Source: an uncultured bacterium (lineage in GTDB: Bacteria > Omnitrophota > Omnitrophia > Omnitrophales > Aquincolibacteriaceae). Taken from it: a stretch of 64,000 nucleotides of DNA. The stretch lies in NCBI GenBank assembly GCA_964562525.1, contig CAZLTL010000006.1, positions 31,187 to 95,186 on the forward strand, read 5' to 3'. How positions within the stretch are numbered: position 1 is the stretch's first letter; every line of letters starts with the position of its first letter. Positions 2,434 through 51,400 of the stretch are shown here, piece by piece. A program made the position numbers and the translations under genes. The notes below the pieces were generated by a model. That model searched no databases and was not told where the DNA came from. It saw only the letters and a program-made list of their open reading frames with translations.

Positions 2434-2473
2434 AATCCCTTTACTTTTTCGCTGGGAAGCCGATACTTGCCTT

Positions 2474-2830: not shown

Positions 2831-3012
2831 AAATCAAGCGGTTTTTTTTGTCGCCGCCTGGCTCGTCCTCTTTTTGCTTGCCAACGGAATACTTCATTGT
2901 AAGATAACGCCCAAGGTCGGCTGCTTTTTCTGTTATTTTCTATTTTTTTACATCTTTTTTACCGAGAGCCGTCCTCCCTTTATTACTTTTTTTGAGGGAA
3001 GGATTATCATTC

Positions 3013-9751: not shown

Positions 9752-9771
9752 GTTTTTTTACGGAGTCATCC

Positions 9772-10857: not shown

Positions 10858-10861
10858 AAAA

Positions 10862-10977
10862 ATCAGAAATCAGAAATCAAAAATCAGAAATCAAAGCCAT
10901 AACTTAGAATTCAAAGATGTTCGAGCATCTAAATGTATTTAATCTATGGTTCTGAGCTCTGATTTCTAAGCTCTAAA
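10862..10977. repeat. Intergenic heptanucleotide tandem-repeat element with an inverted distal arm (mraY-murD spacer)
   Basis: Five tandem heptamers, ATCAGAA ATCAGAA ATCAAAA ATCAGAA ATCAAAG, at 10862-10896. The distal arm TTCTGAGCTCTGAT TTCTAAGCTCTAAA at 10950-10977 has a reverse complement that again reads ...ATCAGAG CTCAGAA. The imperfect dyad is centred near 10920. Confidence 0.8.
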
Positions 10978-10983
10978 CTTATT

Positions 10984-12434: not shown

Positions 12435-14013
12435 ATGAATAGAGTCCCGAGAATTTACAAGCTAATCGCAGTGTTTACCGCACTTTGCTTAGAGTGCACG
12501 TCCATCTCCATTCCCACTTTGCATGCTCAAACAGTTCCGCAAAATATTCTTTCTGTAAAAAAACTGAATCCTGAGATTCTTAAATTACCGGAAAAGTTTG
12601 GTGAGGTGGTGGAAAGCCATGCGGGAAATGGAAATGTGATTGTGGTGCAGGACGCGCACGCAATTCCGGATGCGCAGAAGAATATCGCGAATGTGATCAA
12701 GTATATGCAGCAAGAGTATGGCGTGGGAACCGTTGCACTTGAAGGTGCGAGCGGCGATCTCGATCCGCAAATCTTCCGCAGTTTTCCTGATAAGAAGCTG
12801 CTGCGAGAAGTGATGAACGGGTACATGAATTCGGGTGAAATCGCGGGCGGTACGGCTGCTGCGATTTTCGACGAAACCACAACGAAGTATGTCGGGGTAG
12901 AAGATTGGGATGTTTATGAAGAAGGTTTGGGGCTTTATCTCTCCGCGATGGATAAGACCGCAGCCATTGAAGCTCAGCTATCTGCTTTGCGTGAAAAGTT
13001 AAACAAGGAAAAAGAAGCGATTTATCCGCGGGCGTTACTTGAAGTTGATCACGAGATCGAAAAGTTTTATGAAAATGCCGCGCAGCTAACGGAACTGATT
13101 AAAGTGTTGGGAGCGATTCAAGCCCCTAAGGCAGGCAGTGAACTTGAAGCGGTGTGGAAGGAAGTTTCGAAAGCCCACAGTCCGGCGACCGGAGGCGAGA
13201 GAAAGGACATAGAGGTTCGTGCTTTAGCAGCGAAGGTCGAAAAGGTGTTAAAGAGCCCAGGGGCGGTGAAAGCGTTTAACAGCCGTAAACAAGAATGGAT
13301 GACAGGTCAGATCAGCGCAGAAGCCTTTGCACTCAATTTGAAAGAGTTTGCTGATCAAAGCGGACTTAATCTTGAGATGTCCTCCGATTTGCTCGGAATG
13401 GTACGAGACCAGCAAACGTTAAAGGGGCTTGAAGGAACCAAGCTGTTTCGGGACTTAGAGATTTATATCCGTGAAGTGAAGATGCAGTTAACGCAAAGAC
13501 AACAGACGGATGTTTCGGTTAGCGGTGTGAATGCTGAGATGTCAGCGATTCGGGCGTTGGATGAACGGACGAATTCACTGCGTGTATTAACGAAGCTATC
13601 AAAACTTGAGTTGTCCCGCCAAGAGTGGACGAATTTATCGGGGAATTTGGTGTTTGAGGCCTTTGCGGCATTGGGATTAAAACAAGAAGACTTTCTGTTC
13701 CACCTCGCTTTTTATCTGAATGCTGAAGAACGCGACCAAATCTTTTTCGATAATCTCAAAGCTTCGGTCACCGGCCTCCGGCCTTCCGTGATTGTGGCCG
13801 GTGGTTTTCACGCGGAAGGAATCACGAGCCGCCTCAAAGAGGCGGGAATGGGCTATGCGCTTGTGATGCCGAAGATCAATCACATTCCTGAAAATAACTC
13901 GTACAAAGCGCAGATGCGCGGGGAAGTGTCGTGGAAAGATTATTTTGAAGTTGAGAACGGTCGCATCCATCTTTACAAGGCGTTTGTGCGCGCAACGCGC
14001 GACAAGCTTGTCG
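12435..14013 (+). other. ORF A head module: signal peptide plus split TraB/TIKI/ChaN-like domain
   Basis: The signal-like N-terminus is [11 protein letters not shown]...[41 protein letters not shown] and [12 protein letters not shown] resemble the GTxH...VE and GxGHxxG motifs of TraB/GumN/TIKI-fold proteins. The same motifs occur in ORFs B and C. Confidence 0.5.
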
Positions 14014-17000
14014 CAGACCGGAGACCGGAGGTCGGAGGGCAGAGTGACTCAGAGCTCCGGACCCCGGACTTAGGCCTATTAAAAGCTTGGCGCGATCAAA
14101 TCATCCGTGATTTATCGGATATGGGGAAGGTGAATCGCGCGGCCTGGTACACACGGTTTATGGATGAAGTGGTGGACGAAAGCCTGAAGCACACCGATGC
14201 CGACAAGCTGATGATCAAAGTCGACAATTTTATCCGCGGTTTGCGCGGACTTGAGAAGAACAATCAAATTGATCAGGCAAATATAGCGGATTTACTCAAG
14301 GCAAGTATGGCGTCACCTGCTGTTACTTCCCCAGCTGTTGTCGGTACCCCGCTGTCGTTTCCGGTTAATCCCGCAAGTGAAGTTACCATGCAAGAAGCAT
14401 GGGCTAGCGTCCGGGAGTCTCTTCCTGTCGCCATAATTAATGCTTCTCCAGCAGATAATACGCAGTTGCAAGAGCAGGTGACGACGATTCAGGCAAATGA
14501 GCCAATTAATTACAGTGGACTCTCAGCTGAGTTTGATGCAGCAGCTATTAAGCAAACGGCCTTACTTAGCAATTTGGTTCGGCGGGTCTCAAGTATTACC
14601 GATGCAGATTTGGAGTATGAGTGGAATGAAATGGGACGACTTCTTCGTTTGGTGAACGGGATGAAAGGAGAGCCCGACCCGCGAGATCCGGAAGCAATTT
14701 TTGGTTCTGAAGAGCGCAATTTTAAACTACCGGTTGCAATGCGTTCCAAAATTGTGCGCAGTTTGAGTGAGCGAATTCAGTTTAAGTTGGCATGGACGCA
14801 TGCTGTAAATACATTTTTGAACGATGCTGAAGGTGTATCCAAGTTGGCAAGCCGGGCTGCCCCTGCATTAAGAGAGAGTAATGATGAGGGCGCGGCTGTT
14901 GAATTTGAAGTTTTGTCTCCTGGACAATTAACGGACGAAGAATTCTACCGTACTCTTTTGGGCGACAACGGAACCGTGAGCAATGGGTTGATTGGTTCGG
15001 GAAATTTAGTAGCAGCTTTTCGACTTGTTACTCAGAAAATGGCCGTCATGATCAAGGCCGGACCCGAAGGAGTTCCCGGTGGATCAAGAGAGCTAATCAA
15101 GCGCGTTCATGCCTTAGATGGAGTCGCTAAAATGATCCGCGATGAAATTACAACAATGCAGCGCTCCGAAGCGCGGGTTAATGAAAATGCGCCGACAGAT
15201 CAGGCGGCACGGGAGGAAGCGCTTGCAACTGATGAGAAGCTGAAAAGGCTTGATGTCACGACTTTCTTTAAAGAGATCCTTAAATCGGAATGGAAGTGGT
15301 TGTTGGTTGGTTTTGTTTTATTAATTTTGAGCACCATGCTCTACGACTTAGTCGCTGTTACTACGGTCGCGCAATTTTTTTTAAAATCTCTGGGGGTGGG
15401 TGTTGGTTTCTCTTGGGGTGCGATTTTGCTGTTCAATCCTTTGACAGTGCTTACCCATGAATTAGGGCATTTTCTAACCTACCGATTAGTTGGCGGTAAA
15501 TCCGATAACACGTTTGGTTTTAATAGGCACTCCTACTTTTTCAATGCAGATGACATATATAAACTCCCCATATGGAAAGTTCGGATTGTGGATATGGGTG
15601 GGCTTGTGATCAACACAGCTATTTTTGCCACAATTGGTCTTATTTCGTATCTTACTTTGGGCGCGACCCCTGTTCTTATTGCTCTCGCTGGACTTCAACT
15701 TGCTGAATTTATAATGGCTTCCGGTGATTATGAGAAATTCTTCAATGCCAGAGGGTATCAGGCTTTGAGCCTTGATATTGCAAAGTTTCAGGAAGAGATC
15801 AAAAATTACAAACCTGAATTTCATGCAGATGGCACGCGAATATCGGCTGAAGCTGATCGCCCTTTGGATGAGCAAACTCAACGCGAAGCACGGGTGGATA
15901 AAACAGAAGAGGCTTTGAGAAGTGGGGCGTTAACAGTTGAAGGGAAAACGGCGGTTTTTGGCCCTCAGGCGAATAAAGATTTTGCGATAGGAGTAAGCCC
16001 GGAAGTTTCATTTGTGGATTTAGATAAAGCCGATTTTGTAACGAAAGCAGAAACATTTCTCTTTCAATCGCTTTTCTTTGCGGCGGCTTTTTTAAAAATC
16101 CCTGTTGGGAAAGAGCAGAAATTAAATACTTACAAGGAAGTATTTGAAGCGCTTCAAAATGCCAAAGCCGCGGTCAAAAATGCCGGTGGCTTAAGCTTGT
16201 ATGCTGCCCAAGAAAAATTAAAAGAAGCCCAAGCTGAAAAAGATGAGTTTGTGGCTGAAGCTCAAAAGAGAGGTTTTGCCGAGTTTTTGCTTCCGGGTGG
16301 AATTCTAAGCCGCCGCATGGAGATTTTTGTTCCCAATGAAAATCAGCGCGAACGGCTTTTAAAGTATTTAACCTTAACTTTTGTAGGGCAAAGTAAGGAA
16401 TCGCTGCTCTCAGACATTCTGAAAGTGCAGCAAAAATTAGGAGTCACTTTTGATCCGGCGGTTCTTGAGCAGCTTTTAGCCGAGTTTGAATCAAAGCGCA
16501 GCTTCATGTTTCCCGGGGGAGTTTTTGCCGGGAAAATGGATGCAGAGATTCAAGATATTTTTGGTCAATTTATTCAGGTGAAAGTTTTAAGTCAAACCCA
16601 AAGTGTTTCAAGCCCCTCAGTTGGAAATATTCAGCTCAATCTTTCAGGTGCGTTGGTTATGGGGGCAGGCCAATCTGAAGTCGCTGTGGATTGGGATCAA
16701 GTTTTACAGTCAGGAGAATTGGCTCCGGCATGGTCTGAAGCTTTTACTGCACAGCTCAAGAAGGCGCTCATCTTTAAAGATGGGAAACTGCGTGTGTTTA
16801 ATCTCGGGACAGGCGACCCCACCCCGTTTAGCCAGAATCAAGATTACACACATATGGCATTTATTGTGAATGGGAAAATGATTGTTACCGATCCGTCCAT
16901 TCGCAGTATTCGTAATCTTGAGCGTTTGGGATTTTTGGAAAAAGTTGAGGCAATTCATCTGACCCATGTTCACTTTGACCATGTAGGTGGCATTTTAGAT

Positions 17001-20000
17001 ATAGCGCGCCGTAAACTCAAAAAATCGGAATCCTTGCCTAAGCTTAAGCTGGTTATGCCGACTGTTGTTGCGCTGCAACTCGAAAGAACTCTTGCTTATA
17101 ACTTTTCCACGATGGCTGATGATTCAAATTATGATTTCAGCCAGCTTGCGCTGGTCAGCGAACTTTTCGATTATCGGGGACCTGAGAAAATCAATAAAAC
17201 GATAGAAATTTCCCAATTACAAGAATCTGCAGAGTTTAAAGGTGTTCAAATTGAACTTGCACCAACGTTTGGACACCCGATTCCAACCTACGGAGTCAAA
17301 TTGATTACTCAAGAGGGTTTGAAGATAGCCTATTTGTCCGATTCAGTGATGCCAACCCCAACGATTAAAGCAGCGGATGGAAAGGCAATCCCTAATCCTC
17401 GATATTCGGAGTTTGTAAGTTACTATGCGGATTCAGATATATTGATTGCTGAAAATGGCGTGCCGGGCGTGCATATTACTCCCGAGCAGCTTGCCGAGGC
17501 TTTCCCTGAGCATATTAATAACGGAACTCTGTTTACTGTTCATTCGTCGGGTCCCCAAGCTCAAAAAGGGTTAATTCGATTTATGCCGGGCATGATCTTG
17601 TCTCCGCTTCAATCGAATCAAAGAAAGCAAGATGTTCAGCAAAGTGCAGCGACGCTCATTGAGAATGAAGCTATTCGAGATTTTTTAAAGTTAAATTTAG
17701 AGTTAGCCCAAGAACTTTCGAGTATGGGAACGAAGGTTTCATTTTCTGAGGGGGAAGTTCTTTTTCAGCAAGGCAACCCGGTTTATGACTTTGATCATGT
17801 TTATATTTCTTTATCCGGCGAAACAATCGTTGAGGGGCCCGGTGCAAAGCGGCTTCCTTCGATTGGAGCTGGGAGATTAATCGGTGAAATGGCGCTTTTG
17901 ACTAAGGCTTTGACGCAAGAACAATATGACCAGATCATGGTAGCCATCGGGAAGGGTAAGGATACGGCAGCGCTCGATTTTTTTGGGAGAGTGACTTACG
18001 ATTTGGTAATCGAAGGGCAGCCTCCTTATCGCATTGTGAATCCAAGTTTTGACTTAGAAATAGAAGCGAAGGAATTGACGGAGGATCAAAAATCAAAGTT
18101 AAAGCCTGTCTTTGATATTGCAAAGTCAGGTAAACCCATTCCGCGATCGGTAACGGTTCGGGCAGGTGCGGGAGCAACTTATTTAGCGATTCCCAAAGAT
18201 GCTTTTTTACAGTTTTTAACACGAATTGATGCGTCAAAAATCGATTCGAGTCGACAAGCATTCATTTCAGCTATTTACGCACAAATTGGCATCAATCTTG
18301 ATTCTCGAAAAAAGATGAGTGAGTTAGCCACTCCCACTCAGAACGAAACAGATGTGGTAAAGGCATCAGCTGATACGTCAGTTCGCTCCGAAGCGCGCGC
18401 GGATGTTGAATGGTTTAACTGGCGCGTGGACAAACAAGGCAATCCAGTTTCGAATGCCGGGCCTATGAGCGAGCTTGTCACTTTGAATGTTGGTGACAGT
18501 ATCTACTTTGAGGTTCCAAAAAATAAGCCGGGTTTGATCGACTATTACTACCAAGTCGGAATGGAGGGCGAGAATTTTACTTTTCAGCGCTATGAACAAA
18601 GCGGGTCTGTTGCTCAACCTGCTGGTAAGAAAATCGAAATTCCCCGATCACTGCAAACGGATAAGGCCGCTAAAAACAGTGATAACTATCTATTTAGTTT
18701 TCAAGTTAATAATGGAAAACTAATGGTGAGTTCAGGCCAGAAATATGGCTTGCTAAAAAGTAAGGTTAAAAAAGACGGAGCGATTGGTGATAGTAAACCG
18801 AGCGTGCGACGAAAAAAATTTGACGATGCCGCTCGGTCTTATCGTGAAGCATTATCAAAAACAGATTTCCCCAGGTTGAGAAGTTTGTCAGCTGAATTAG
18901 ATGAAAAAATGGACGAAATTTTGGGGGTGGCTACGAATGGTTTATTTCTAATACCGCTTGGTTGGCTTGAAGGACGAATCAAAGAAATGGATGCGGGGTT
19001 GCGTCGAATTGAGAGACATGAGTTATCGGGTCAGGGTAAAGAAGCTTTGGGCTGGGCGATGCAGGTGCTGACGGAACAAATCAATCATTTTCGAAATTCT
19101 GTTGTTGCTGTTAATTTAGAACTCAATCTTTTGACCCAAGGAGAGAAAATTAATTACGATGTTTTTAGTGAGTTGATAGAGAGCTTTCTTCAAACCAACA
19201 GCTTATTTGCATTATCTCAAGAGTTGAATGTTCGCATGCAGTCCTACCCTGAGACAATTGAGTTCAGTTTAAAAAATGTCGATGCCGATTCAAAGATTTC
19301 TGCGCTTAAAAGGCGAATTTTCGATTATGGGCAAGCAACGGCTACTTTGACGCGTCTTGAAGACGCTCGAATATTTTTTGAGAACAGCTGGAAATTGTAT
19401 GATGATCTTGTTGGGTTGATTCAGCAAATGGCATTAGAAATTCAAAGACGTGATGAAACCGAAATGACGATTGAAAGAGGTGCTGAGGCAGCAAAAGAAC
19501 AGCGCAATCAGCTTTGGCGGAGTATTGATTATTATGAAGTGCTAGGTGTTTCTCGAGATGCTTCTCTAGGGGACATAAAAAATGCTTATCGCAGTTTAGT
19601 TCGCGCGGGTAATCATCCGGATAAGGTCGCAGGCGACTCTGCTACGCTAAAAGCAGCTGAAGAGAGATTTAAAGAAATAGGACCGGCATATGAGGTCTTA
19701 AGTAATGAAGTAGACCGCGCTGAATATGACAAAATTCATTTTGCCCGTTCCGAAGCTCGTTCGGTAGACTCAGGGCAAGCGCGGGACTCGTATGAGCGCT
19801 ACAAGCTTTTATCAGGGACTTTGGCAGATTTACCTGACCCTGTATTTGTCAACGATGGGGAAACGATTACTTTGCGGATTCCGCATGATGAAGTCGAAGG
19901 TAGTCAGCCCGAGCTTGATCTTTTGGTTGTATTCAAAAAATTTAATGGGAAGGTGTTTTTTGCCCACCTAGATTCATTTTCAGACTTATCAATGCTTGAT

Positions 20001-23000
20001 GAATATTACCGTTCTGCTGATCCTCTTCAGGAAGGTTCTCGAATCAAATGGGAAGAGGTGAACGAGACTTCAGAAGTTGAGATTATAGGTCGTGAGGAGG
20101 AAATGGATAGTGAGGGTACCAAGGTCAAGATTGTTTTTAGTGAACAGGGTTTTACGATTGCCAATGCCTCGATCTCGGATGTTTATTATTTTGAGGGTAA
20201 GCCCGGTCCGGAAATTATTGCTTCCGCTCTTCGGGATAGTTATCTTTCAAGTGCGAGCACAGGTTTGCCCATAGCCACCGAGCCAATTTTTATTGCCGGG
20301 GAGGATGCAACTGAAATTTTTAACTTGGTCACTGAGTTTATTAATCAGGGTCCGTATGTTCCTGCTGCAGGCGAAACCGCTCTCTACACAAAGGTGAAAC
20401 AACAAATTAGGTTGATTACCGAAAGAACCGGCGAAAAGTATCGATTCAACCCGATGATTCAAATAAATGCCTTAAGTGATACTTATAGAGCTTTAAACAA
20501 TTTTCTCATGAATCGATTTACTGACCTGGAAGGCTTGGAAAAAGGTGTGGTCATTCTCAAGCGAATTCCTAATCTTGAGAAGCTGATCGAAGTTTTAAGA
20601 CATTTAATATCAGCTTACGAGCTGGCTTTTAATCACCTTGAGAATTCAACTATTGAGATCGAGGTGGATGAAAAAGAAAACCATCGGCGTCATGCCTTGC
20701 AAATGCTGGTTGAGTTAAAAAAGATTGTTAATTCATATGATTCAATTCCTCCTGCCGAACGACCGCGGGCTGAAATCCAAGGAGAAGTTCGAATGGCAAG
20801 GTTGCCCAGCCAAAAAAACTTTTCCGAGTTCATTTCTTACAATGGCGATAAAATTCCACTTTGGGCAATTAAAAGAATTTATCTGCCGGATAATAGGGTT
20901 ATTCAATTTGGTGAGATTTCTCAGGCTAATAACGAGGATGGTGTGTATGATCGGGAGGATCGCACGAGAGACGTTAGGAATGCCTTGTCACCATTTCCAG
21001 AGAGTGCGGAGATCGTTTTTGAGCTGCAAGATGGCGTTTTATTAAAGCGAATTTTGGAAGCGGAAGAGTATGAGACGATAACGGCAGTCTATCCGGTTGA
21101 TTTTGACCCCAAAGAATTTAGCAGGCTTCCGCACGGAATAGATTTACCGGAGCGGCGGTTTATAAATGCAGTTAACGTGAACGGGTTTATTACCACCCTT
21201 TATGAGTTGGAATCTCTTTTGCCTGAGACTGGGTTAGCCGGCAGGACAGTGACTTTTTTCTATTCCGCGAATAACCATCTTCAAGCCTTCAAAATCAGTG
21301 ATGAAGCTAAACCTCAGTCTGAGCAATATGTTTACTCTCAGTTTCGAAATTCAAGCAATGTTCAGCCTATGTCCGCGCCTTTTTCTGCTCAGGAAACTCA
21401 AGAAATTGCAAAAAAGGATTTGGTTGACCTATTTGCGGATCTCTTTAATCGCCGTGCGTTGACCTCCGCGCAGAGGGTGGTTCCGTTGAGCGCGCTTATT
21501 CTTCAATTTTTGGCTGTCTCGCTTAACGCTAAGGCTGTTTCAGATTGGGCTCAGGAAGGCAAAGTTCCGCTGTTTGAAGTTGAGTTGGCGAACGAACAAA
21601 CCATTTCATTCAGCGGGCTTAATCCTGCTTTACATCACGATGATGCCGTGCGGATTGAAAGACTGCTATCTCAGATTGACGGGGGATTGGATGCCGCTTC
21701 TTTTCGAATTGTTTTGGCGCCTGCTGGACCGGCTACCCAGTCGAATCAAGCGGGGCAATTTTTTGATCGACCCGGGCGTGGTTTGGATGAGTTCAATGCC
21801 TGGCATAAGTTATCTGATGTCTTGGAACTGTTTTTTCTGTCAGTGGGCGAAACTGGCAAAGACAAGAAATTGGATGCTGCGTCAAAACAAAAACTTTTAG
21901 ATAAACTCGCCGTGCTTGTTGAGGCGATAGCCATGATTCATCCTTCAGTAACAGGAAGTGAAATTTATCATACTTTATATGCTGTCATGGATGCTTCAAT
22001 GTTTAGGGCTAAAAAACTAGATACAGGCAGCAGAATCAATGTTTTGATTAATTTGGCGCGCCAAATCAGAGCCGCTGCGCCTCAAGATCCTCAACAGAGC
22101 ATTTATGTGCAAGGTGAGTTTGAATCAAAATTAAAGACCCCAAACTTAGATCTAAATGAATTGGCAAAAGAGACTGCCCGCTCCGAAGCCCGTTCGGCAG
22201 ACTCAGGGCAAGCGCGGGAGGCTGAGGCGGTTGCGGGAGATGTGTTTGGCTTTTTTAAATCGCCCGCGGATTATTCTGCAGACCAGATAAATACTTTGGC
22301 AGATGAAATTGATACATTGGCTGATAAACAAGGGCTTGATGTTTTTGTGAATCTCTTGCGATCGATAGCTCGAGACTTAGCTGTCGTTAGTGTTCAGGGG
22401 AGCGAAAATATTTTAAGCAAAGAAGCGACAAGTTTTGCCGTGAAACTTTTTGTTGGACGCATGATGGCAGCAAAGCGGCAGTCGACTTTAATAGATGTAA
22501 AAATCGAGAAGCCAACCATTGCTTTAGCATTAAAATTGAATGATGCCCAAAAAGCTTCTCTGGGAGATAAGTTGTCCAGCGAATTGGCTGAAATTCTGGG
22601 TGCGGTTCAGATTGAGGCCAAAGATTTTAAAGAATTAGGTGCGTTTTTTAAGAGCGTAGGGGTTTTAGTGACAACGATTGATCCCGATCTAGCAAACGCA
22701 GTTGTATTAGAAAGTTTTGGTGCGGATTGGAGTGGTTTACCTGCCGTGGGTGTCTTAGAAGAATCGCAGCAATTTGATTCGGAGTTAGAAGGGATGCGTA
22801 TTTATTTGCAGCTTTTGATCGCGGCTTATTTAGCTCGGAGCTTTCCGGATAAGAAAGTAATTTTGACACCCGAGATTGTTGGCGAGATTAATAAGCTGCT
22901 GTTTCAATCTGATGCAGGGCAAGAAGGAATTGTGCAGATACAAAATGGTCAGTTAGTTGTTAAACGAAGCAGTCTGCTGGCATATATTCAAACCTTATTC

Positions 23001-23033
23001 GCGGCGCAATCTGCCGTTGCAGTCGCCGCGTAA
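12435..23033 (+). CDS. Giant modular protein A (3,532 aa): signal peptide, head module, multi-enzyme cargo, tail module
   Basis: Uninterrupted 10.6-kb ORF. Recognisable in-frame motifs occur along its whole length (see the domain sub-features). Its N- and C-terminal modules are paralogous to the ORFs at 41847 and 45438. Confidence 0.85.
13179..13199 (+). repeat. In-frame heptamer triplet AGTCCGG CGACCGG AGGCGAG (encodes SPATGGE)
   Basis: Three 7-nt units (21 nt) inside the ORF A head module. Confidence 0.55.
14015..14070 (+). repeat. In-frame heptamer repeat with inverted arm (AGACCGG AGACCGG AGGTCGG ... CCGGACC CCGGACT)
   Basis: Direct reading of the sequence. The arms match as reverse complements at 11 of 14 positions. 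It encodes [18 protein letters not shown] at the end of the head module. Confidence 0.75.
15291..15755 (+). other. ORF A cargo: M50/S2P-like intramembrane metalloprotease-like module
   Basis: Several hydrophobic helices. HELGH (15456-15470) lies within a predicted TM segment ([18 protein letters not shown]), as in site-2 protease/M50 families. A downstream MASGDYEKF may supply the acidic ligand. Confidence 0.55.
16786..17560 (+). other. ORF A cargo: metallo-beta-lactamase-fold hydrolase domain
   Basis: The HxHxDH signature [10 protein letters not shown] is at 16965-16982. Downstream are His/Asp positions (TFGHP, YLSDS, TVHSS). Confidence 0.75.
17650..18230 (+). other. ORF A cargo: cyclic-nucleotide-binding (CAP_ED-like) domain with a large internal insertion
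   Basis: [30 protein letters not shown]...[12 protein letters not shown], then about 75 aa, then [26 protein letters not shown]. Confidence 0.65.
19527..19742 (+). other. ORF A cargo: J-domain (DnaJ N-terminal domain)
   Basis: [34 protein letters not shown]...[23 protein letters not shown], with the HPD tripeptide at 19614-19622. Confidence 0.85.
22179..23030 (+). other. ORF A tail module (shared with ORFs B and C)
   Basis: It starts at the last RSEAR motif and ends ...[38 protein letters not shown]. Compare B ...EDGIEKAGKNWRITKPSLSRLKDIWQRFQAALQVMQSA* and C ...EQEGVGRYKLTNNSLVLYLETILADIEALLATAQSA*. Confidence 0.6.
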
Positions 23034-24229: not shown

Positions 24230-24233
24230 CCCG

Positions 24234-27611: not shown

Positions 27612-27621
27612 TTTATTTTTT

Positions 27622-28542: not shown

Positions 28543-28586
28543 ATACGAGGAGCTCCGACTGCGGTTTGCGGGAGTGGGATTGAAAA

Positions 28587-41846: not shown

Positions 41847-44800
41847 ATGAGATCAGTTAAGCACAAAAGTAAACGGTGGGTAGCGCTTGGAGCGTGTATT
41901 TGCTTTGTTGCCACGCTCTTTCCCGACGCTCATGCCGCGCTGCCTTCGATTGACATGGCGGTTAAGGCCGAAACTCCTCGTGTTCTTAATATTGACATTC
42001 CCACTGAATTAGCCACAGTCGATGAGTGGTATCAGGCTCCTTCAAAATCCAAGCCGAAACTGATTGTGCATATTCAGGATGCTCACGCGAATTATGAAGC
42101 TCAAACCAAGATTCGTGATGTGATTAAGTATCTCAATACGAATTACGGTTTTAAAACAATTCTCGTTGAAGGCGCGGCAAGTGAGCTGGACCCGAATATT
42201 CTTAAGCTTTTTCCGGATCAAGACCGCAATTTAAAACTTGTCGACGAGCTTGCCAAAATCGGTGAGGTCACCGGCGCGGAAATGTTTTTGGTTGAAAACA
42301 GTGATGCCGCAAAAGGGATGGGGATTGAGAAGCCGGAGCTTTATCGCAAGAATTTTGACGCGCTTCAAAAAGTTTATTCCGAAGATGAGTTTGTCAGCGG
42401 ATTTTTCGAAGCTTATGAAAAAAAATTAGGACAAATTTCATCGCGAAGTTTTGGCCCGCGCATGATCCAAGCTTTGGCCGAATGGCGTAAATTTGAGAGC
42501 GGGCATCGTGATTTTTTACCATTTGTATCTAAGCTGGCGGAGCTTTCCAAGAAAGTTTTAGAGATGGATCTCGGTGTTCTTTACTCGCAGATTGAGTGGC
42601 CGCAATTAACACGTTTGTTGGTTCTGCAGCGTGTTGAAAAAGAATTAGAGCAGACTCATGACAGACGACCAACGACTGACGTCGAAGAAGGTGCTCAGCG
42701 TTCAGCCCTTAGTGTCAAACAACAAGCGGAACTGGAAAAACAGAACATCATCGATTTGATGAAAGTTGCTCAGTCGCCGGAAGGATTGATTCGAGGACTG
42801 GAGAACTTTAATGAGAAATCAGCTAATCTCAACCGCATTGGATCTTCCGAAGTTCGCCAGGCAAGTGCGCCGCGCGCTTTGATGGAGGCGTTGGTGGAAG
42901 AGGGTGCTAAGTTCGGTTTGAACATTCGCGATTATCCTGCTTTTGCCAAATACGCTGGCTATTTGATTCTTCGCGGCGAAATTGTGCCCGCAGAGTTATT
43001 TGAAGAAATTAAAAAGCTATTTGACCTCATTCTTGAATCTCTCGTGAAAGAAGCACCTTCTGCAGCAATGGAGTCAACGGATGATTTAGCCGCTCGCAAA
43101 CGTCTGCTTTTACTGCATCGTGATGAAATGCTGGCGCGCAAACTCCTTAAGCTTGAATTAACCCACGACGAGTGGCTGGCGGTGCTGAATAGACAAGATC
43201 GCTTTTATCCTGATGATTTGAATCGCCGTATGCTTGAACAACTGGGACAAAATACCCGAGTTAAAGAAACCGGCGGGGAAGAAGCCTCGCAAATGAAAAA
43301 ACTCAATGAAGCCTTTCGTGCCGCATTCACTTTCTATTCCGCTGCGGTGAATCGTGACACTTTCTTCTTTCAGCGTACGCAAGAAGTTTTAGCGCAAACC
43401 GACAAAGCCATTTTGATTACCGGAGGTTTTCACGCGGAGGGAATGAAGTATTTCTTTAGAAAATATGACATCAATTACGGAACTCTCACTCCACGCATTA
43501 CCCAAGAGTTCACCAACGAACAATACCGTAAGGTGATGATGACCGGCGTCGAGAAAAACAAAGCGGAGATTACGCAGCAGCTACAGGAAGGATCTTCAGC
43601 GGTGGAGGAGAGCGACACTCCAAAGTCTAAAAAAGCTGCGAAAGAAAACTATCTTGGTGCGGAAAGTCTTATTGATCCTCTAAGTGATGGTTTAGTTGGT
43701 GGGACAAGATCTGAAGTGCGGAGAAATATAGTTCAAATGTTAGCGGTTTCATTGGGCTTACCGAAAATTCAACAAGAAACCTCTTTAGCTGCGCCCGCGC
43801 AGGTGGCCGTTTCACGTCAGCCGAGATCGATCGCAGTACGATTCGAAAGTGTTTCTGCTCCTCAGGGCTTTTTATCTGTCCTAGAGGGGCAGCGAGCTTT
43901 AATTGGTGCGGGTATTGGGATTTTTGGTCTGGTTGCAGCGTATTTAGCCGCGTTATCCTCTCCAATTTTGTTGATTCTGGCGATTCCTTTTACTGCCAGT
44001 GGAATGATTTATGGATTCGATCAATATTTTAAAGCGCAATATTTGATTTCGAATGCCACCAAAGCCGGAAGTGTTGAATTAACCGATAGGCTTGCTACTT
44101 CTAGTCAAACAGAGGTTCCAGTTGTTGTGCAGCGAACGGAGGTTGCGCAAGTGGATGCGGAGCCGCTCACTTTCACTTCTGTTTTAACAGAGTTGGAAGT
44201 TGAAAGAGCGAAGTCTGAGCCAGATGCAGCGCGTTTGGCTGATTTGGTTGCCCAGTTGGTTGATTTAGCCGGTGACATTGAAGAGGCTAAACAAGCTCAG
44301 AATGTACTACGAGATTTAAGAGTTAAATACAAGAATCAGTTGAATCCGTCGCAATCAACCAACCTGATCATGAAAGTAGCACAACTCGCTGTGAAGTTGA
44401 ATCAATTCCAACAAGCTCAAAAATTATATGAGAGGGAGGAGATTGTTGTAACAGCGAAAGCTCCGCGCGAAGCTATTTTTGCAGCTCTTTCTCCGGAGGA
44501 CAGAGGGATTTTAAAGAGGATGGCGTTTGATGATTTAGAGAATCAAATTATTGACGCAAAAGACTTGTCCGCATCGCAAGCTGTGGCTATTTTGATTACT
44601 TACGGATTTATTTCCGATAAGGACCGCAATGCCGCCAAAAACTTAGCGATATTGGCTTCACTGGCTGTCACCAAGATTGCGCCTCAAAGGGTTTCGGAAT
44701 TGGCGGAAATGGTACGAGCCTTTTTCCCGGAAATGGTCTCATCGGACTTGGGTTATTTAGGCCGAATTATTGATGCGAATGGCATCGGAAACAAGTTAGA

Positions 44801-45272
44801 TACGATGCGGATGCAAGCTGTTTTAAATCCAAAAATGGAATTTGAAGTTGTTGTGTTTGGAGAGCGCGGCCCGATGGTTGAAGATAAGGCTCTTTCTAAT
44901 TTGCGTATTCGTTATGCCAAAGATTTTAATTCAGCTGCTAGTTTAGTTACCAGCAAAGGCGCTATGGAGAAATTTAAAATAGGCACCAAAGTATTGATGG
45001 TTGTGCCGGAAGGTAAAGATTTTAGAAAACTAGCTTCTCAGCTCAACTTGCAAATTGTTCAGGAAGAAAATAACCATGAGAAAAATTTAGAGGCGAGTGT
45101 TGCTATGGTTGTTGGAGCTCAGAATCTTGCCAGAAATGTTGAGGCATCCGTTGATGAGGACGGTATTGAAAAAGCAGGCAAGAACTGGCGCATTACAAAG
45201 CCCTCTTTATCAAGGCTAAAGGATATTTGGCAAAGGTTTCAAGCTGCTTTGCAGGTTATGCAATCAGCGTAA
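41847..45272 (+). CDS. Modular protein B (1,141 aa): head module, RSEVR, TM hairpin, tail module (cargo-less family member)
   Basis: Signal peptide (...FPDAHA/ALP). The head aligns closely with ORF C (HIQDAHANYEAQTKIRDVIKYLNTNYGFKTILVEGA; EWRKFESGHRDFLPFV; LLVLQRVEKEL; AILITGGFHAEGM). The tail ends ...ALQVMQSA*. Confidence 0.85.
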   Translation: MRSVKHKSKRWVALGACICFVATLFPDAHAALPSIDMAVKAETPRVLNIDIPTELATVDEWYQAPSKSKPKLIVHIQDAHANYEAQTKIRDVIKYLNTNYGFKTILVEGAASELDPNILKLFPDQDRNLKLVDELAKIGEVTGAEMFLVENSDAAKGMGIEKPELYRKNFDALQKVYSEDEFVSGFFEAYEKKLGQISSRSFGPRMIQALAEWRKFESGHRDFLPFVSKLAELSKKVLEMDLGVLYSQIEWPQLTRLLVLQRVEKELEQTHDRRPTTDVEEGAQRSALSVKQQAELEKQNIIDLMKVAQSPEGLIRGLENFNEKSANLNRIGSSEVRQASAPRALMEALVEEGAKFGLNIRDYPAFAKYAGYLILRGEIVPAELFEEIKKLFDLILESLVKEAPSAAMESTDDLAARKRLLLLHRDEMLARKLLKLELTHDEWLAVLNRQDRFYPDDLNRRMLEQLGQNTRVKETGGEEASQMKKLNEAFRAAFTFYSAAVNRDTFFFQRTQEVLAQTDKAILITGGFHAEGMKYFFRKYDINYGTLTPRITQEFTNEQYRKVMMTGVEKNKAEITQQLQEGSSAVEESDTPKSKKAAKENYLGAESLIDPLSDGLVGGTRSEVRRNIVQMLAVSLGLPKIQQETSLAAPAQVAVSRQPRSIAVRFESVSAPQGFLSVLEGQRALIGAGIGIFGLVAAYLAALSSPILLILAIPFTASGMIYGFDQYFKAQYLISNATKAGSVELTDRLATSSQTEVPVVVQRTEVAQVDAEPLTFTSVLTELEVERAKSEPDAARLADLVAQLVDLAGDIEEAKQAQNVLRDLRVKYKNQLNPSQSTNLIMKVAQLAVKLNQFQQAQKLYEREEIVVTAKAPREAIFAALSPEDRGILKRMAFDDLENQIIDAKDLSASQAVAILITYGFISDKDRNAAKNLAILASLAVTKIAPQRVSELAEMVRAFFPEMVSSDLGYLGRIIDANGIGNKLDTMRMQAVLNPKMEFEVVVFGERGPMVEDKALSNLRIRYAKDFNSAASLVTSKGAMEKFKIGTKVLMVVPEGKDFRKLASQLNLQIVQEENNHEKNLEASVAMVVGAQNLARNVEASVDEDGIEKAGKNWRITKPSLSRLKDIWQRFQAALQVMQSA
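42663..42718 (+). repeat. In-frame heptamer triplet AGACGAC CAACGAC TGACGTC plus an imperfect inverted arm
   Basis: Directly follows the codons for LLVLQRVEKEL(EQTH). Encodes DRRPTTDVEEGAQRSALSV. Confidence 0.65.
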
Positions 45273-45437: not shown

Positions 45438-48400
45438 ATGCGTAACTCGTCCTGGCTTAAATTCACCGCTGGTGTATTTACGTTTCTTTTCGTTTTAAAC
45501 GACATTGGGCAAGCTGCGCCTGCGCTTGACTTTGCGGCGTCGTTGCGTTCAGAAATTCCGCGCGTATCCCATATTGAAATTCCACCTGAAATGGCAACTC
45601 TGGAAGATTGGTATGAATCGCCGAACGTAGGAGATACGCGGCTTATGCTTCACATTCAAGATGCTCACGCTCAGCCTGAAGCGCAAGCACGAATCCGTGA
45701 TCTCATCCACTATTTAAATAAACAGTATGGTTTTAAAACAGTTTTTGTTGAAGGTGCAGCGGAACAACTTGATGTGAAGTGGCTGCATCCATTTAAAAAT
45801 TCTGAACAAAACAAAAAGTGGATTGAAGAAAAAACATCTTCAGGCGAAATGTCGGGCGTTGATTTGGCATTGCTTGATGGCGTTGCCGGGCTCAAGGCTT
45901 TGCCAATTGAAACAATTGAAGGCTATCGGGATGGTTATCAAAAACTGCACGCGGTTTATACCGCTGAACCAGAGGTGAACGAGTTTATTAATTTTTTTGA
46001 CTCCAAGCTCGATTCAGCGGCATCCAAGATTTTGAATGAAAAAACAAGACGTATTCTTTCTGAGTGGAAAAAGTTTGAGTCTGGACATCGTGATTTTCTG
46101 CCTTTTGTTGAAAAATTAGCCGCGCTTGCGAAAGAGGATCTCAAGCTTGATTTAGACGCTCTCTACTCCCAAATCGAATGGCCACAACTGAGTCGGCTAC
46201 TTGTTCTTCAGCGAGTTGAGAAAGAACTCGCTGAAGCGGTGCCGACAGGGCAAAGGTCAAAAGTCAAAGGTCAAAGCCATAACTCAAAGCCGGTTAGCTG
46301 GAGAGAACAAGCGCTCGATGAAAAGGAAATAGTTCTCAATTTGCTAAAAGACGAACAAGCTAGCTCGGGATTGATCCATGGTCTCGAGCGGTTTGACGAG
46401 AAACATCTCAACTTAAACCGTATTACTGTCGGCGATGGAAGGCAATTTTCGAGCCCGCGCGCTTTAGTTGAGCAGTTAGTTGAAGAAACTCGCAAATTTG
46501 AGATTGATTTGCGAGATTATCTCGCTTTTTTGAAATACGCCGGATATTTGATTTTACGCGGCGAACTTCAGCCTTCTTTGCTTTTCAAGGAAATAGAGCG
46601 CCTTTTTGAGAAATTCCTCGAGAAGACTAACGACCCTTCGGCTGAGCTCAGGGCAAGCCAACGACTAACGACTAACGCCGGAGAAGATGTTCAGCGTGAA
46701 GCGCAGAGCGTTAAGCTGATCGAGATCTACCGCGATTCATTTCTTTTAAAAAAGTTGCTTAATCTTGAGCTTTCTCGCGAGGAGTGGCGAAAAGCGCTTG
46801 CGAAGCGGGAGGAGCTTGAACCGCAAAAGATTTTAGGGAGACTAAAGAATCTTGGAGCCGCGGTCCACGGTCCACGAGCCACGGCAAACGAAAAAAAGAT
46901 CACGAATCTTGAACCTCGAACTACGGAAAATCAGGACGTGGAGCGCACGTTTGAGAATGCCTTTGATTTTTATGATGCCGCGTTAGCGCGTGAAGATATT
47001 TTCTTTGAGAAAATTAGTTCGTCTTTGGCTCAAAACGATAAAGCGATTTTGATAACGGGCGGTTTTCATAGCGAAGGAATGAATGCGTTTTTTCGTGAAA
47101 AAGAAATTTCTTACGGAACCTTAACGCCGCGTATTACCAATCTTGCGCCCACTTCTTTGTACCGCAGCGCGATGATGCAAGCGACAAATTTGTCTAAAGT
47201 TTCGTCTCAGCCCACCCCAGCCTTGGCACAGCCGCTCGAGACTATTGCCGCCATGACTGCTTTGAGCGTGGTTGCAGTTCGTTCTGAAAGCCGACTTCAG
47301 ACTGAAGCTGCCGATTTTGTTCAATGGGTTGAGGATTTGAAATTAGTTCGGGATCCAAATAATGCCGCTGAAATCGAAACTGTTTTGCTTCGCCATCGAG
47401 ATCTTTTTAAGCATAGACCCGATGAATTTCCTGAAGAGTCGGTTAGCTTTCGCGGAAGAAATTTGCAGAAGATTCCTTCTCGTTTGATTCATCAGCTTGA
47501 TCTTACTTGGCTTAATGGCCGAAATTCTGATGCCAAACCGATTACAAGAAATGACTTGTTTCAGTTGGTATTTGACCGGCCTTTGGATGAAAACGAAGCT
47601 AAGGGGTTTGCCGGGTATGACAACATACAAAGTTTGCGTGATTTGTTCTATTTTTTGATTACTAAAGAGCATGGCAGAAGTTTGCAGCTTTTTGCAGAGC
47701 AGTATTTTGCTTTGGACTCCGGACAACGAGAGCTTTTTTTGGAGCAAGCATTTGATATTCATCAAATTACTCAGTATTTGATGGGGCAGATGGCTCGTAA
47801 CGATGATTATGAAGTTTCTGATGAGATTTTAACGGCTTACGCGAAAGCATGGCCAATTGTCATTCAATTTGGAGAGGCAGAGCTTCAATCGGGCGGGATA
47901 TTAAAGCGGTTAAAGACCGTTCCGGATTTGCCGGTTGACATCGATTTGCGCTCAAATCAGGATTCGGGGCAAGAAGTAATTTTAGAAGATTGGGAGCGAG
48001 CCCTTTTGCTGCTTGAGAACTATGTTGAGATCGGAGATGAGTCGATTGATACTCAAATCGGAGTGGTTTCATTGGGATTAAGGAGTTTGGCGGGGGATCA
48101 GGCAACGGAGGTTCGCTGGTCTCGTGCATCATCACTGGAACGGGCTGTGGCAGTTCGTCTGGAAGGAACTTTGCCTCTATCTCGCGAGGAAGCGAATCGA
48201 TATTTGCGATGGCTTGAAGTTGCGGATAGCGATTTGAATGGATTGGATCAAGCCAAACTTTTTGAGCCGAATCGTCTGGTCTTGATCGGCAAAATTGCCA
48301 GTTTGCGTGAACAGATAGTTGCTCGTCAGCTGCAGTCTGAATCTCGAGAGGATGAGCGTGATAGGGGAATGGCTCGATCAGAATTACGTACCGTTGAAAT

Positions 48401-51400
48401 TGACGGAGTCACTGCGAACTGGGAAATTGTGGAAAACCTGCTGCTGGGAGACCCCGGAAAATTTGATGCGGCATTCGAGTTTGAAAAAGACGAAGAGGTT
48501 TACTTAAAAATAAAACCCGCCAACTTCAAACAGCAGCAAGATTTGACTGAAGCGGGTTTTGAGTCTGAAAATCCGAATTGGGTTAAGAGTTTAGTGGATG
48601 ATGCGCAGCTGCTTACTTATGTGGTTGGAGCTCAGCCCAAGATCCGTGCTTATCTTGTCCAAGATAAATCAAGAAATACGACCGGCTTAAATCAAATCGA
48701 GTTTGATGCGGGCGGAGTTGTTCGGCCGAAGGGTGATAAGGGTATTTCTGCAAGCCGGTTGAATGAAGCTGGCCAACTAATTACTTTTATACCGCAGGTT
48801 TTTGTTTTAACGAAAGCCGGAGTTTTGCCCGGCAGATTTAAAACTTTATCAGAAAAAGATGAAATAGAACGTGTTGCGGCTGAAAGATTGGCTGCTGAGC
48901 AAGAAAATCTGCGGGCAGTTCAGCGTTCAACTGCCGCATTAAAAGAAATTCAAGACCGCATGAGTGCGCTCGCGGCATCGATGGAAAGTGAGTCTGCGTG
49001 GTCTTTTGTTCCTCAAAGCATTCCTAATATTGATCGTGAGGAAATTGCGGATAGCGATGACCTTAAGTTGATTCGAGCGCGCAGTCAGATGATTTCTGAA
49101 GATTTGAATTCTTTACGAATAGCTTGGCAGCAGGCGACGGATACACAAAAGAAATGGGACAGGCTGCTCCGAGATTGGGCTTCTGCTTACGATAAAATCA
49201 ACAAAGAAAGCAGTAAGCTTGCCGGCTTAAATTTTCAATCGATTGCGGTGAATCTGCAAAGCCGCCGTGAGGCATTGAATAAAATAGAAACGTATCTTGA
49301 AAGTTTGGTCAGAATAATGGGCTCGTTTCAAGCCAAAAAAGCTGAATTTGAAAGCAAATTACAGGCTGAGAAAGAAAGAAAAAGAGCGGAAATAGAGCGA
49401 GTTCGGTTCGAATCTTCTCAGAGGCGTGGTGCTTTTTGGGATAGGGTTAACCGTTGGGGGCCGTTTGGTTTGATCGCTTTTGCTGCAATGGCTCTGATTT
49501 GGTTTTTGGGGATACGCGAAAAAACTGTCGCACCTGAAGTTCGTTTGTCGCAACCGGAAATGATGGATTATTCTTTACAGGGCTTGCCCCAAGGGATTTT
49601 GGACGCAATGCAGCGAAATCGGCAGAATTTGAAATGGACCCCGCAAGAGGTTCTTTTACAGCTGCAGACTCTTATATCAAAGCATGTCACAGATGAGCTG
49701 GATTTGGGGCCAATGACAATTGCTGGTTTTCCAAAAGATTTCGATCAGCTTGAAGTTGTAAACCCGCCCAAGGATGCTTACTCGATTGTTATTCCGGGAG
49801 TGCAATTTTACCAAGCCGAGTTCATTCCGAAGCTGAATAACAAACCGATTAAGCAATTTCAGCAAATGGTTGTTTCAGTAGAAACAGTTCGCGGTGCGAA
49901 AGTATTTTATGCACAAGATACGATTGTGCAGGTGGGCGAATGGCTGCTTTCTTTAGCGGGCGATTCGATTTCTTCAGCGGAGAGTTTGCGGATGGGTGCC
50001 TACATTGCCCAGGAGTTTGCCGGCACCACCTTTGGTTTAGAGCAAATTGATCATTGGCTTGCGAAAAACGGTGCCTCGCAGGCTCCGAGTCCATTGCTGC
50101 GAGGGCAAGTCGATTTGCCGGTAACGTATTTTATCGCTAAAGAACTTGAGGGATTGCTGTCATCAGACTCTCCGTTTGTTGAGCCGTTTCGGGAGCTGGA
50201 GAAGCAATTAAACGGAGGGCAGGGGAATGTTTCCGCTTCCGGTAAGATTTTGACAGCACTCATAATCAGCGTTTACGCAGACTCTAAGCTCTATCTTGAA
50301 AAAATTAGCGTGGATGAGCAAAAGAAAATATTTGATGCATTATCAAGAGAGCTTGTCCCGCTGGTAAATCAGAATGGCGTTGGCGTTGAGGTTGCGGCGC
50401 TTGAGCGCCTGCGCGGTTCGATCACTTTTCGAATGGCGTCGCAAACTCAAATGCTTTCGGCAGGTTTAAGAAATGGTTCAATTACCTCCGAACAAGCAGT
50501 CTTGCTGTGGAATCAGCTGATGGGGTTGGAGGAGGAAAACATTTTAGCGATTGTTGGATATTTAAATCAGAAAAATATTCCTCAGGCCGCCAAGCTTTCT
50601 GGGTTTGTCAAAAGTTACTTTGAGAATGCCCGTGCTCTTAGCCAAGACCCTGATGGGGTAAGGTATATTCGCGAGCAAGTTGAATTAAGAATGAGAATGG
50701 GAACAGAGCTACTGCACAAATCTGAGCAGACAAAACCGGCCGGTCGTTCTGAAATGCGGGAGTTTGGTGAGCTGGTTGAACGTGTTATTTCGCACACTCA
50801 TTCGGATGGTGCGAACAAAGATCAACGGAAAAACCTTGTTGATTTTTTTAGGATGATGTCGCGAGGATATCAGCAAGAGTTTCTTGCGGAGCTTCAGCAT
50901 CAAGCGCAAGGACAGCCTGCAAGGAAAAAAATAAAAATTGTTTTAAGTCATGAAAATCCTGACCCCGACGCGATCATTAGCGTGATCGGCGAAGCATACG
51001 CTCAGTGGGCGGCATTAAGCGATCAAGAAAAAGATAAAACCTTGGTGATGCCTTTGCTTTACGGCGAGGTTCCGGCAAACACCTTGTATTTGATTCAAAT
51101 GCTGGAACGTCTGCTTAAGAATGATACGGTTCCGGATGAACAGGAATATGGCGGAATGCTCATGCTTCGTGGTCCACCTGCAATTTCTGGAAAGACGGCT
51201 CCCGGAACGATTCTAGATTTATTACTTATAATTAGCACTAACGCTTCTCAGCAGGACTTATTTCAGCCGTCCGGAGCGATAGAGCTAACCTTGATCGATT
51301 TTAACCCTTCTATTGCTCCAAAAGATTTGGATCCTCTTATGCCTGCGATTGTCCGAACCCTGGATCATCACATCCAAAATGTTGAAAAAGCACCGAATAT

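Follow-up and report, generated by a model that had tools for sequence, protein, structure and literature searches.

The 64,000-nucleotide (nt) stretch analysed here in full (the window; GenBank assembly GCA_964562525.1, contig CAZLTL010000006.1, positions 31,187 to 95,186, from an uncultured member of the Omnitrophota) contains three long open reading frames (ORFs), all on the + strand, and each of them encodes a large protein that starts with a related N-terminal region, hereafter the head. By its predicted fold and its putative active site, this head very probably belongs to the superfamily that includes TIKI, TraB/PrgY/GumN, the erythromycin esterases (Ere) and ChaN. A more far-reaching reading, namely that the head has diverged within the TIKI / TraB-PrgY / [20 protein letters not shown] / ChaN superfamily without losing catalytic competence, its two half-sites lying far apart in the sequence, and that it processes the very protein of which it is part, appears to us evenly balanced between right and wrong. 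The three ORFs, in window coordinates, are the following.

12435..23033, + strand: ORF A, 3532 amino acids (aa), head followed by cargo delimited by RSEAR
41847..45272, + strand: ORF B, 1141 aa, head at ~aa 1-600
45438..59639, + strand: ORF C, 4733 aa, head at ~aa 1-600

On sequence comparison, the three heads are homologous: those of ORF B and ORF C are 27% and 21% identical, respectively, to the head of ORF A, and are much closer to each other. The initial annotation of this DNA had described two motif blocks in each head, and both blocks are indeed present in all three, in frame and at the expected place.

12645-12749, + strand: ORF A motif block 1, aa 71-105, VQDAHA...EGA, [35 protein letters not shown]
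13794-13820, + strand: ORF A motif block 2, aa 454-462, VAGGFHAEG
42072-42176, + strand: ORF B motif block 1, aa 76-110, IQDAHANYEAQ...EGA
43416-43442, + strand: ORF B motif block 2, aa 524-532, ITGGFHAEG
45654-45758, + strand: ORF C motif block 1, aa 73-107, IQDAHAQPEAQ...EGA
47052-47078, + strand: ORF C motif block 2, aa 539-547, ITGGFHSEG

The consensus of the three heads is [VI]QDAHAxxxAQxxIxxxIxYxxxxYGxxTxxxEGA for block 1 and [VI]xGGFH[AS]EG for block 2. The spacing from the His to the Glu of block 1 is 28 in all three heads, whereas the distance between the blocks, originally given as 350-400 aa, has to be corrected, the Glu-to-second-His distance being 356, 421 and 439 aa in A, B and C, respectively. 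Across 157 aligned heads, which were taken from a family of ~9,650 clusters (residue numbers are those of ORF A throughout), the motif residues are 96-99% conserved, and given also the homology of the three heads, the co-occurrence of the motifs is more than chance. The three residues that had been nominated as metal ligands, the His of QDAH (H75), the Glu of EGA (E103) and the His of GGFH (H459), are each present in 156 of the 157 heads. The same holds for R433, the basic residue that precedes the second His by 26 positions and is located in a conserved helix, FYxNAExRD; D73, two positions before the first His, is Asp in 154 heads and Asn in two. Both R433 and D73 are superfamily residues that the earlier list had omitted, and the few seeming exceptions at the positions of this pentad are frameshifted fragments. 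In ORF A, the codons of H75, E103, R433 and H459 occupy nt 12657-12659, 12741-12743, 13731-13733 and 13809-13811, respectively. The second block is conserved only in part: G456, G457, F458 and H459 are 99% conserved, whereas the Glu of GGFHxEG is Glu in 99 of the 157 heads. Further near-invariant residues of the head (Q72, Q81, E135, E156, Y161, K193, D205, Y427, P479, Y490, M494 and W500) extend beyond the pentad; they lack a known counterpart and may form a substrate site.

The fold of the head was predicted with AlphaFold2 for ORF A, aa 1-526, from an alignment of 22 sequences (predicted local distance difference test, pLDDT, 85.4; predicted template modelling score, pTM, 0.75), and an AlphaFold model was likewise obtained from 42 aligned sequences for P0009, a relative ~38% identical to ORF A, with head pLDDT mostly >90. 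The interval first assigned to the head, 12435-14013, corresponds to aa 1-526 only; the conservation of the family reaches further, to ~aa 620 (nt ~14294), with the WRDQII and DE motifs. The head of ORF A can thus be described as follows.

12564..12905, + strand: N-lobe, aa ~44-157, with strands 56-62, 65-73, 99-102 and 151-155 and helix 78-95 (AlphaFold2)
12906..13766, + strand: all-helical inter-lobe insertion, aa 158-444 (AlphaFold2)
13179-13208, + strand: variable, low-confidence loop within the insertion, aa ~248-258 (AlphaFold2 and alignment; the only low-confidence loop of the insertion in the model, at 248-251)
13767..14294, + strand: C-lobe, aa 445-526, and helical C-terminal extension, aa 527-620, WRDQII...DE

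In the model, the N-lobe carries D73, H75, E103, E135 and E156; the C-lobe consists of strand 451-456, helix 457-469 and strand 472-479. H75 follows strand 65-73, E103 follows strand 99-102 and GGFH459 follows strand 451-456, strand ends being where the superfamily has these residues too, and the two half-sites are separated by a helical insertion of 290-370 aa. The closest structural neighbours of this alpha/beta core, a central parallel beta-sheet with helices on its flanks, are members of the TIKI/EreA/ChaN/TraB superfamily, the very superfamily that was named when the head was first likened to a split TraB/TIKI/ChaN-type fold. In a ranking against a library of 48,164 chains, both models place the same 7-8 superfamily members at the top; for P0009, the top 14 include TraB (9.4), 2rad (9.1), ChaN (8.5), EreC (8.2), RRSP (8.0), 2qgm (8.0) and HopBA1 (7.6). 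The absence of any TraB/TIKI/ChaN/EreA-like match had been set as the finding that would speak against the proposed fold, and the outcome of the structural-neighbour ranking favoured it.

The sequence comparisons are far less favourable, and together with one structural search they have to be counted against membership in the superfamily. The full-length heads gave no match to the TIKI clan and none above the cut-off in Pfam, only unrelated sub-cut-off ones (E 0.012-0.2), and no match in NCBIfam. When the insertion was deleted in silico (leaving aa 44-170 and 418-530 of ORF A and the equivalents) and 29 heads were scanned against Pfam, Cofac_haem_bdg, the ChaN family labelled 'Tiki superfamily', was matched by 4 of the 29 (best E 0.0028), TraB_PrgY_gumN by two (E 0.03) and Erythro_esteras by one (E 0.013). 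Cofac_haem_bdg was the commonest family, and outside these three none matched more than two members; all the superfamily matches (7 of the 29 heads, E 0.0028-0.03) are nevertheless below the curated cut-offs, so that no significant match to PF01963, PF04187 or PF05139 was found with either full or insertion-deleted heads. A hidden Markov model of the family, with and without the insertion, yielded only noise against PDB sequences, and hhalign of the insertion-deleted head was not significant with YbaP or with an alignment of the YbaP family (probability 2.4%), the sole local match (VALEGA to IELEGA) being out of register; the low diversity of that alignment (Enterobacteriaceae only) makes this a weak test. 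The Foldseek check that the initial annotation had suggested, run against PDB, returned nothing below a best E of 0.1; its weak tail (E 0.2-3) includes Ere, TraB and HopBA1 entries. Foldseek aligns globally over the insertion, which dominates the match. Finally, the first motif is a variant, QDAH in the head as against the canonical GxxH.

With sequence statistics this weak, the case for homology rests on structure and on the congruence of the catalytic site. That all sequence-based tests fall below significance is what one would expect if the head were an unrelated, Rossmann-like alpha/beta domain, with a misleading AlphaFold model and coincidental motifs. We consider such convergence or artefact very improbable: two independent, high-confidence models put the same superfamily members atop the library, with structural matches ~155-178 residues long as opposed to ~110 for methylases; the conserved residues occupy superfamily catalytic positions, with an identical His-to-Glu spacing; and the three Pfam families that do surface below threshold all belong to this one superfamily.

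Comparison with characterized members helps to define what the head shares with them and what it does not. The superfamily is characterized by a parallel beta-sheet core, a set of two His and two Glu residues and a conserved basic residue, represented in RRSP by E3900, H3902, E3930, R4001 and H4030 and in Bcr135 by H85 and E113 (PMC6254334). RRSP, a Ras/Rap1-specific endopeptidase and MARTX effector (PDB 5w6l), has the layout of the head, that is, acidic-x-His, Glu at +28, a basic residue and a second His, except that head D73 is Asp where RRSP E3900 is Glu; the His-to-Glu spacing of 28 is also found in Bcr135. RRSP differs in the lack of the 290-aa helical insertion and is only ~10-13% identical to the head, which is N-terminal, after a Sec signal peptide. 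TraB/PrgY/GumN proteins (PF01963; PDB 8bqs_DQ) follow the same motif logic (beta-strand-xxH, beta-strand-E, R-[N/D] helix, GxxH-xx-G), and in E. coli YbaP, of the TraB family, the elements come in the same order as in the head: GSIH41, IVE67, R228-N229 and VGALH252LYGEG. These proteins are ~260-400 aa long, without a large helical insertion, and have GxxH as the first motif where the head has QDAH. Ere structures, too, have an insertion that parts the two core halves, in their case a helical lid. Ere, Bcr135 and Bcr136 (PDB 6xcq, 2qgm/3b55, 2rad; PF05139) are macrolide ester hydrolases of ~400 aa and cytoplasmic, unlike the head proteins. The departures of the head from the rest of the superfamily are QDAH in place of GxxH, the helical split of 290-370 aa and the N-terminal fusion to giant multi-module proteins.

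Is the head an enzyme? The metal dependence proposed in the initial annotation is at most a suggestion, for it varies within the superfamily: Tiki is metal-dependent and RRSP is reported to be metal-independent, whereas in EreB and Bcr136 the metal is reported to be required for the structure and not for activity (PMC6254334). Members that are inactive, PMT for example, no longer have the 2His/2Glu set (PMC6254334). The possibility has to be considered that the head is a non-catalytic module of the same fold that functions in binding, as a chaperone or in priming export, and aids secretion or anchoring, by analogy with the haem-binding ChaN and the inactive PMT C1/C2. In favour of this, the structural neighbours include ChaN and PMT, the ChaN family ranks first among the sub-threshold Pfam matches, and the long insertion of helices could offer a surface for binding. 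We nonetheless deem this improbable because, in contrast to the PMT-type members, ~99% of the heads keep the pentad across lineages that are only ~20% identical, as is characteristic of active sites maintained by purifying selection. The head is probably an active hydrolase.

What the substrate might be is suggested by a short motif, R-S-E-x-R, that recurs in the proteins behind the head. In the window, the motif, one RTEIR variant and a segment of ORF A at the place of a first site (PASEVT) are located as follows.

15162..15176, + strand: RSEAR, ORF A aa 910
18384..18398, + strand: RSEAR, ORF A aa 1984, exactly where a cargo block that the database protein P0053 has in common with ORF A ends
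19746..19760, + strand: RSEAR, ORF A aa 2438, six residues past the DnaJ domain (aa 2365-2432)
22179..22193, + strand: RSEAR, ORF A aa 3249
43707-43721, + strand: RSEVR, ORF B aa 621, the sole site of ORF B
47280-47294, + strand: first of nine RSExR of ORF C (aa 615, 980, 1770, 2295, 2674, 3228, 3607, 3784 and 4218)
ORF C aa 4448, + strand: RTEIR
14370..14387, + strand: PASEVT, ORF A aa 646-651, aligned with the place where most family members have their first R[SA]ExR

The three head-bearing ORFs contain 14 motifs in 9,406 aa, compared with none in the 9,537 aa encoded by the remaining 22 ORFs. In 142 proteins of the family, R[SAT]ExR was observed 894 times as against 34 expected from composition, a 26-fold excess; 137 of the 142 have at least one, and three of the five that have none are fragments of <=663 aa. 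The motif consists of Arg, Ser (83%) or Ala (16%), Glu, a variable residue (L, V, A or M) and Arg, with small residues before and acidic residues after it. In related loci, the motif is found outside head-bearing frames almost only in long frames on the same strand that resemble the tails of upstream giant genes. Sites are more numerous in longer proteins (r = 0.75; 2.2 per 1,000 aa); their median spacing is 305 aa, and the median position of the first one is aa 667, ~50 residues after the head. In P0009, the sites at aa 597 and 628 fall within a stretch (575-645) between the head and the next helical/membrane module that is modelled with pLDDT 29-46, which places them in a flexible linker. 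The sites also mark the borders of modules: when the cargo of 140 proteins was compared by BLAST, with shifted positions as control, 37.6% of the homology-block starts lie <=15 aa from a site compared with 4.7% in the control, and the effect is weaker for block ends (18.7% vs 8.2%). The codons of the sites vary synonymously, which indicates that selection acts on the peptide.

A role of RSExR as a recombination site at the DNA level was also considered, and was rejected in view of this synonymous variation and the unconserved flanking DNA. A peculiarity of codon usage is that the Ser of the motif is always encoded by TCN, with AGY in none of the 14 cases in the window and, of 131 cases at related loci, in none either, although the AGY background is 30%; the first Arg is mostly CGY. 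The exclusive use of TCN fits old sites that evolve under purifying selection, with Ser and Ala exchanged via single T/G changes. In ORF A, nt 19746-19790 and 22179-22223 have extended sequence in common ([14 protein letters not shown] and [14 protein letters not shown]), which suggests that a site was duplicated together with the downstream linker.

An intriguing possibility, then, is that the head and the motif are enzyme and substrate. The overall architecture, with an N-terminal head and an enriched motif located in low-pLDDT linkers at the starts of modules, fits a self-processing polyprotein. Under this scenario, the signal peptide would direct the N-terminal head to be exported first, through Sec; the head would fold first and then act as a resident endopeptidase of its own giant polyprotein, its His/Glu site hydrolysing exposed R-[S/A]-E-x-R motifs in the disordered linkers that precede each cargo module. 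The first cut, ~50 residues past the head, would possibly be made in cis, and the later ones in trans, by a released or membrane-tethered head acting locally, so that the cargo modules would be released. We infer the peptide-bond substrate, the cleavage at the motif and the identity of the enzyme alike, with the head as the best candidate for a built-in protease cutting at RSExR. Signal-like N-termini were seen in 114 of 125 complete proteins of the family; ORFs A, B and C each open with a basic and hydrophobic segment resembling a signal peptide and ending in an AxA-type site, which in ORF A is located as follows.

12435..12527, + strand: signal peptide of ORF A, aa 1-31, with a basic N-terminus, a hydrophobic core and the end LHA/Q

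There are precedents for peptide cleavage in the superfamily: RRSP cuts Ras, and Tiki is a Wnt protease (PMC6254334), and Tiki/TraB peptidases have been predicted to participate in graspetide maturation (PMC8939145). RRSP in particular is a sequence-specific endopeptidase that resides within a giant multi-domain secreted protein, but it is a toxin cargo effector that cuts host Ras (Y32/D33), not its own polyprotein. PrgY is thought to act on an exported peptide pheromone at the outer face of the membrane. At the level of the whole system, the closest analogue is the MARTX toxin, likewise a giant secreted multi-effector protein with a built-in protease that is proposed to release the modules at linkers. 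In MARTX, this protease (CPD) is a cysteine protease activated by inositol hexakisphosphate (InsP6) that is located downstream of the effectors and cuts after Leu, and export is by type I secretion. The head proteins differ in protease class, position, signal and site, having a TIKI-fold His/Glu candidate at the N-terminus, the RSExR motif and a Sec-type signal; no CPD, RTX-type repeat or type I secretion domain of Pfam was found in the three proteins of the window.

Several observations, on the other hand, weaken the case for self-processing. The nearest structural relatives of the head are esterases, and the superfamily holds, besides esterases (Ere), non-enzymes (ChaN, PMT C1/C2), so that the fold does not prove protease activity. 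In a model of the P0009 head with its first sites, neither site was docked in the active centre; these sites being disordered, the model is uninformative for cleavage in cis. The canonical first site is missing in ORF A and in its closest relative, L001; at that position of ORF A, PASEVT looks, from the alignment, like a decayed site. Topology is a further difficulty: 49 of 125 complete proteins have no later hydrophobic segment and the rest do, including ORF A with about four at aa 950-1095, and where membrane segments are followed by domains of cytoplasmic type, as in ORF A, some sites may face the other side of the membrane.

An alternative is that the head is a genuine TIKI-superfamily hydrolase with another substrate, perhaps an esterase or peptidase acting on the envelope of a prey or host or on a small molecule, while RSExR is cut by a different protease or serves as a linker or recognition motif and is never cut at all. 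The fold and the catalytic pentad fit this explanation too, and so does the undocked state of the RSExR sites in the AlphaFold model. Other enzymes could be at hand, given that C39 and S8 peptidase domains have been proposed as possible processing enzymes of Omnitrophota giants (10.1101/2023.11.21.568195), and that ORF A has a membrane module of its own with a HELGH motif.

15282-15719, + strand: ORF A membrane module of ~4 helices, aa ~950-1095, the first cargo after RSEAR(910), with HELGH at nt 15456-15470

This HELGH (HExxH) module shows weak similarity to the putative zincin DUF3267 (E 0.004) and to Peptidase_M50 (E 0.025), so that the polyprotein may contain a protease besides the head. 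An other-substrate hydrolase is, however, somewhat unlikely in our assessment, for it leaves aside the strict one-to-one link between an N-terminal head and motif-bearing proteins, the ORFs of the window that have no head being free of the motif. Furthermore, no conserved neighbour gene, be it for a protease or a transporter, was found upstream of the head in 43 loci, so that no dedicated partner protease is evident upstream, and a domain scan detected neither C39 nor S8 domains in the three proteins of the window. All things considered, we find the arguments for and against the full self-processing model to be of about equal force.

The family founded by this head is large, is not annotated in Pfam or NCBIfam, and belongs to the Omnitrophota. 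Of the 19 relatives retrieved with a word-indexed search, those that have a name are all from Candidatus Omnitrophota, and a second search agreed on the taxonomy. When 1.84 billion representatives at 50% identity were searched exhaustively with a profile, 9,650 proteins scored E <= 1e-3, and 6,636 of them reached E <= 1e-30. In nearly all of the best 150 matches, which range from ~500 aa (contig fragments) to ~8,000 aa, the head is at the extreme N-terminus. A scan of one genome per species identified 326 coding stretches, with several copies of the head per metagenome-assembled genome, the named records being all from Omnitrophota except for one 'uncultured Planctomycetales'. ORF A itself is identical to the database protein P0028.

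The cargo, by contrast with the head, is swapped. L001 (DDUN01000073.1, Omnitrophica UBA2337) matches ORF A at 75% identity over aa 1-650 and shows no relation to it after that. P0053 has two blocks of cargo in common with ORF A, one at 1168-1988 with 48% and the other at 2370-3522 with 78% identity. The retention of the head with exchange of the cargo is a mosaic architecture like that of polymorphic toxins. The recognizable cargo domains of ORF A are the following.

16845-17366, + strand: metallo-beta-lactamase-fold domain
17736-17915, + strand: cyclic-nucleotide-binding domain
19527-19730, + strand: DnaJ J-domain

All three are typical of cytoplasmic proteins, yet they are encoded behind a signal peptide; most of the other cargo, in ORFs A-C and four sampled relatives, has no Pfam match. 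The published giant proteins of Omnitrophota, 'Archaeovorins' and multi-enzyme giants (West-Roberts et al. 2023, Nielsen & Lui 2026), come from the same phylum, have the same signal-peptide and transmembrane architecture and resemble the head proteins also in that their cargo is mostly Pfam-dark, with scattered enzyme domains. Cleavage of the giants into smaller products has been hypothesised, and neither an N-terminal head family nor a TIKI-like domain nor a cleavage motif is mentioned in the searched text of the two papers; further literature searches returned nothing. The published descriptions raise the question whether the products of these genes persist as one chain or are cut up, and in one of the giant-gene papers, information on cleavage points is stated to be absent.

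The head offers a testable answer to this question, consisting of a candidate enzyme with five residues and a candidate site, RSExR, and ORF B, with 1141 aa and one site, is a small natural test case. More tentatively, and leaning somewhat to the doubtful side, we propose that the Omnitrophota possess, phylum-wide, true polyproteins (~10^4 clusters, several copies per genome) that are exported head-first, and that the head is a new R-S-E-x-R endopeptidase of the TIKI superfamily that dices the 1,000-8,000 aa behind it (in the proteins sampled) into independent cargo proteins, between a few and a few dozen in number, with the cargo reshuffled between strains behind a conserved head as in polymorphic toxins. 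A very large unannotated family would also be added to the TIKI/TraB/Ere superfamily, with a new architecture (the ~300-aa helical split) and possibly a new role, and the sites would allow informatic splitting of the giants into modules for structure prediction and annotation.

Stand-alone heads were considered and rejected: in the 562-aa 'complete' P0005, a frameshift at a run of C turned out to divide the gene, with the frame continuing into the extension and cargo. At ~5647-5657 of locus L020 (JAHFHF010000028.1), a C-run just after the C-lobe of the head leaves a 'head-only' ORF of 571 aa, and the gene goes on for 1270 aa in a different frame. The run, which lies at the same junction as a 7-nt repeat of ORF A, could either stem from an error in sequencing or act as a phase-variable switch by which head and cargo are uncoupled.

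Such 7-nt repeats had been thought to encode a variable loop in the insertion of the heads. This holds for ORF C only, the insertions of ORF A and ORF B being free of 7-nt arrays.

46247-46276: AGGTCAA x4.3, head insertion of ORF C
46660-46677: AACGACT x2.6, head insertion of ORF C
46861-46884: CGGTCCA x3.4, head insertion of ORF C
14015-14030: AGACCGG x2.3, ORF A aa 527-532

The arrays of ORF C are in or near stretches where ORF C exceeds ORF B in length, and since the unit is not a multiple of three, slippage could shift the frame. P0003 and P0015 have tandem 10-aa repeats, KQDDSRAGLN, at the loop equivalent to aa ~248-258 of ORF A, and the insertion loop appears to be a hotspot of simple-repeat expansion across the family.

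Downstream of its RSEVR site, ORF B has one more feature.

ORF B aa 695-713, + strand: predicted membrane segment (~aa 672-718 by eye)

As for the genomic setting, ORFs B and C lie downstream of a gene for a UvrD-like helicase, and the remaining genes of the window are ordinary bacterial housekeeping genes. Among these is the dcw cluster, in the order murE, murF, mraY, murD, ORF A, ftsW, murG, murC, murB, ddl, ftsQ and ftsA: the 10.6-kb ORF A interrupts an otherwise canonical cluster on the same strand, between murD and ftsW (flanks 6999-12237 and 23123-30645).

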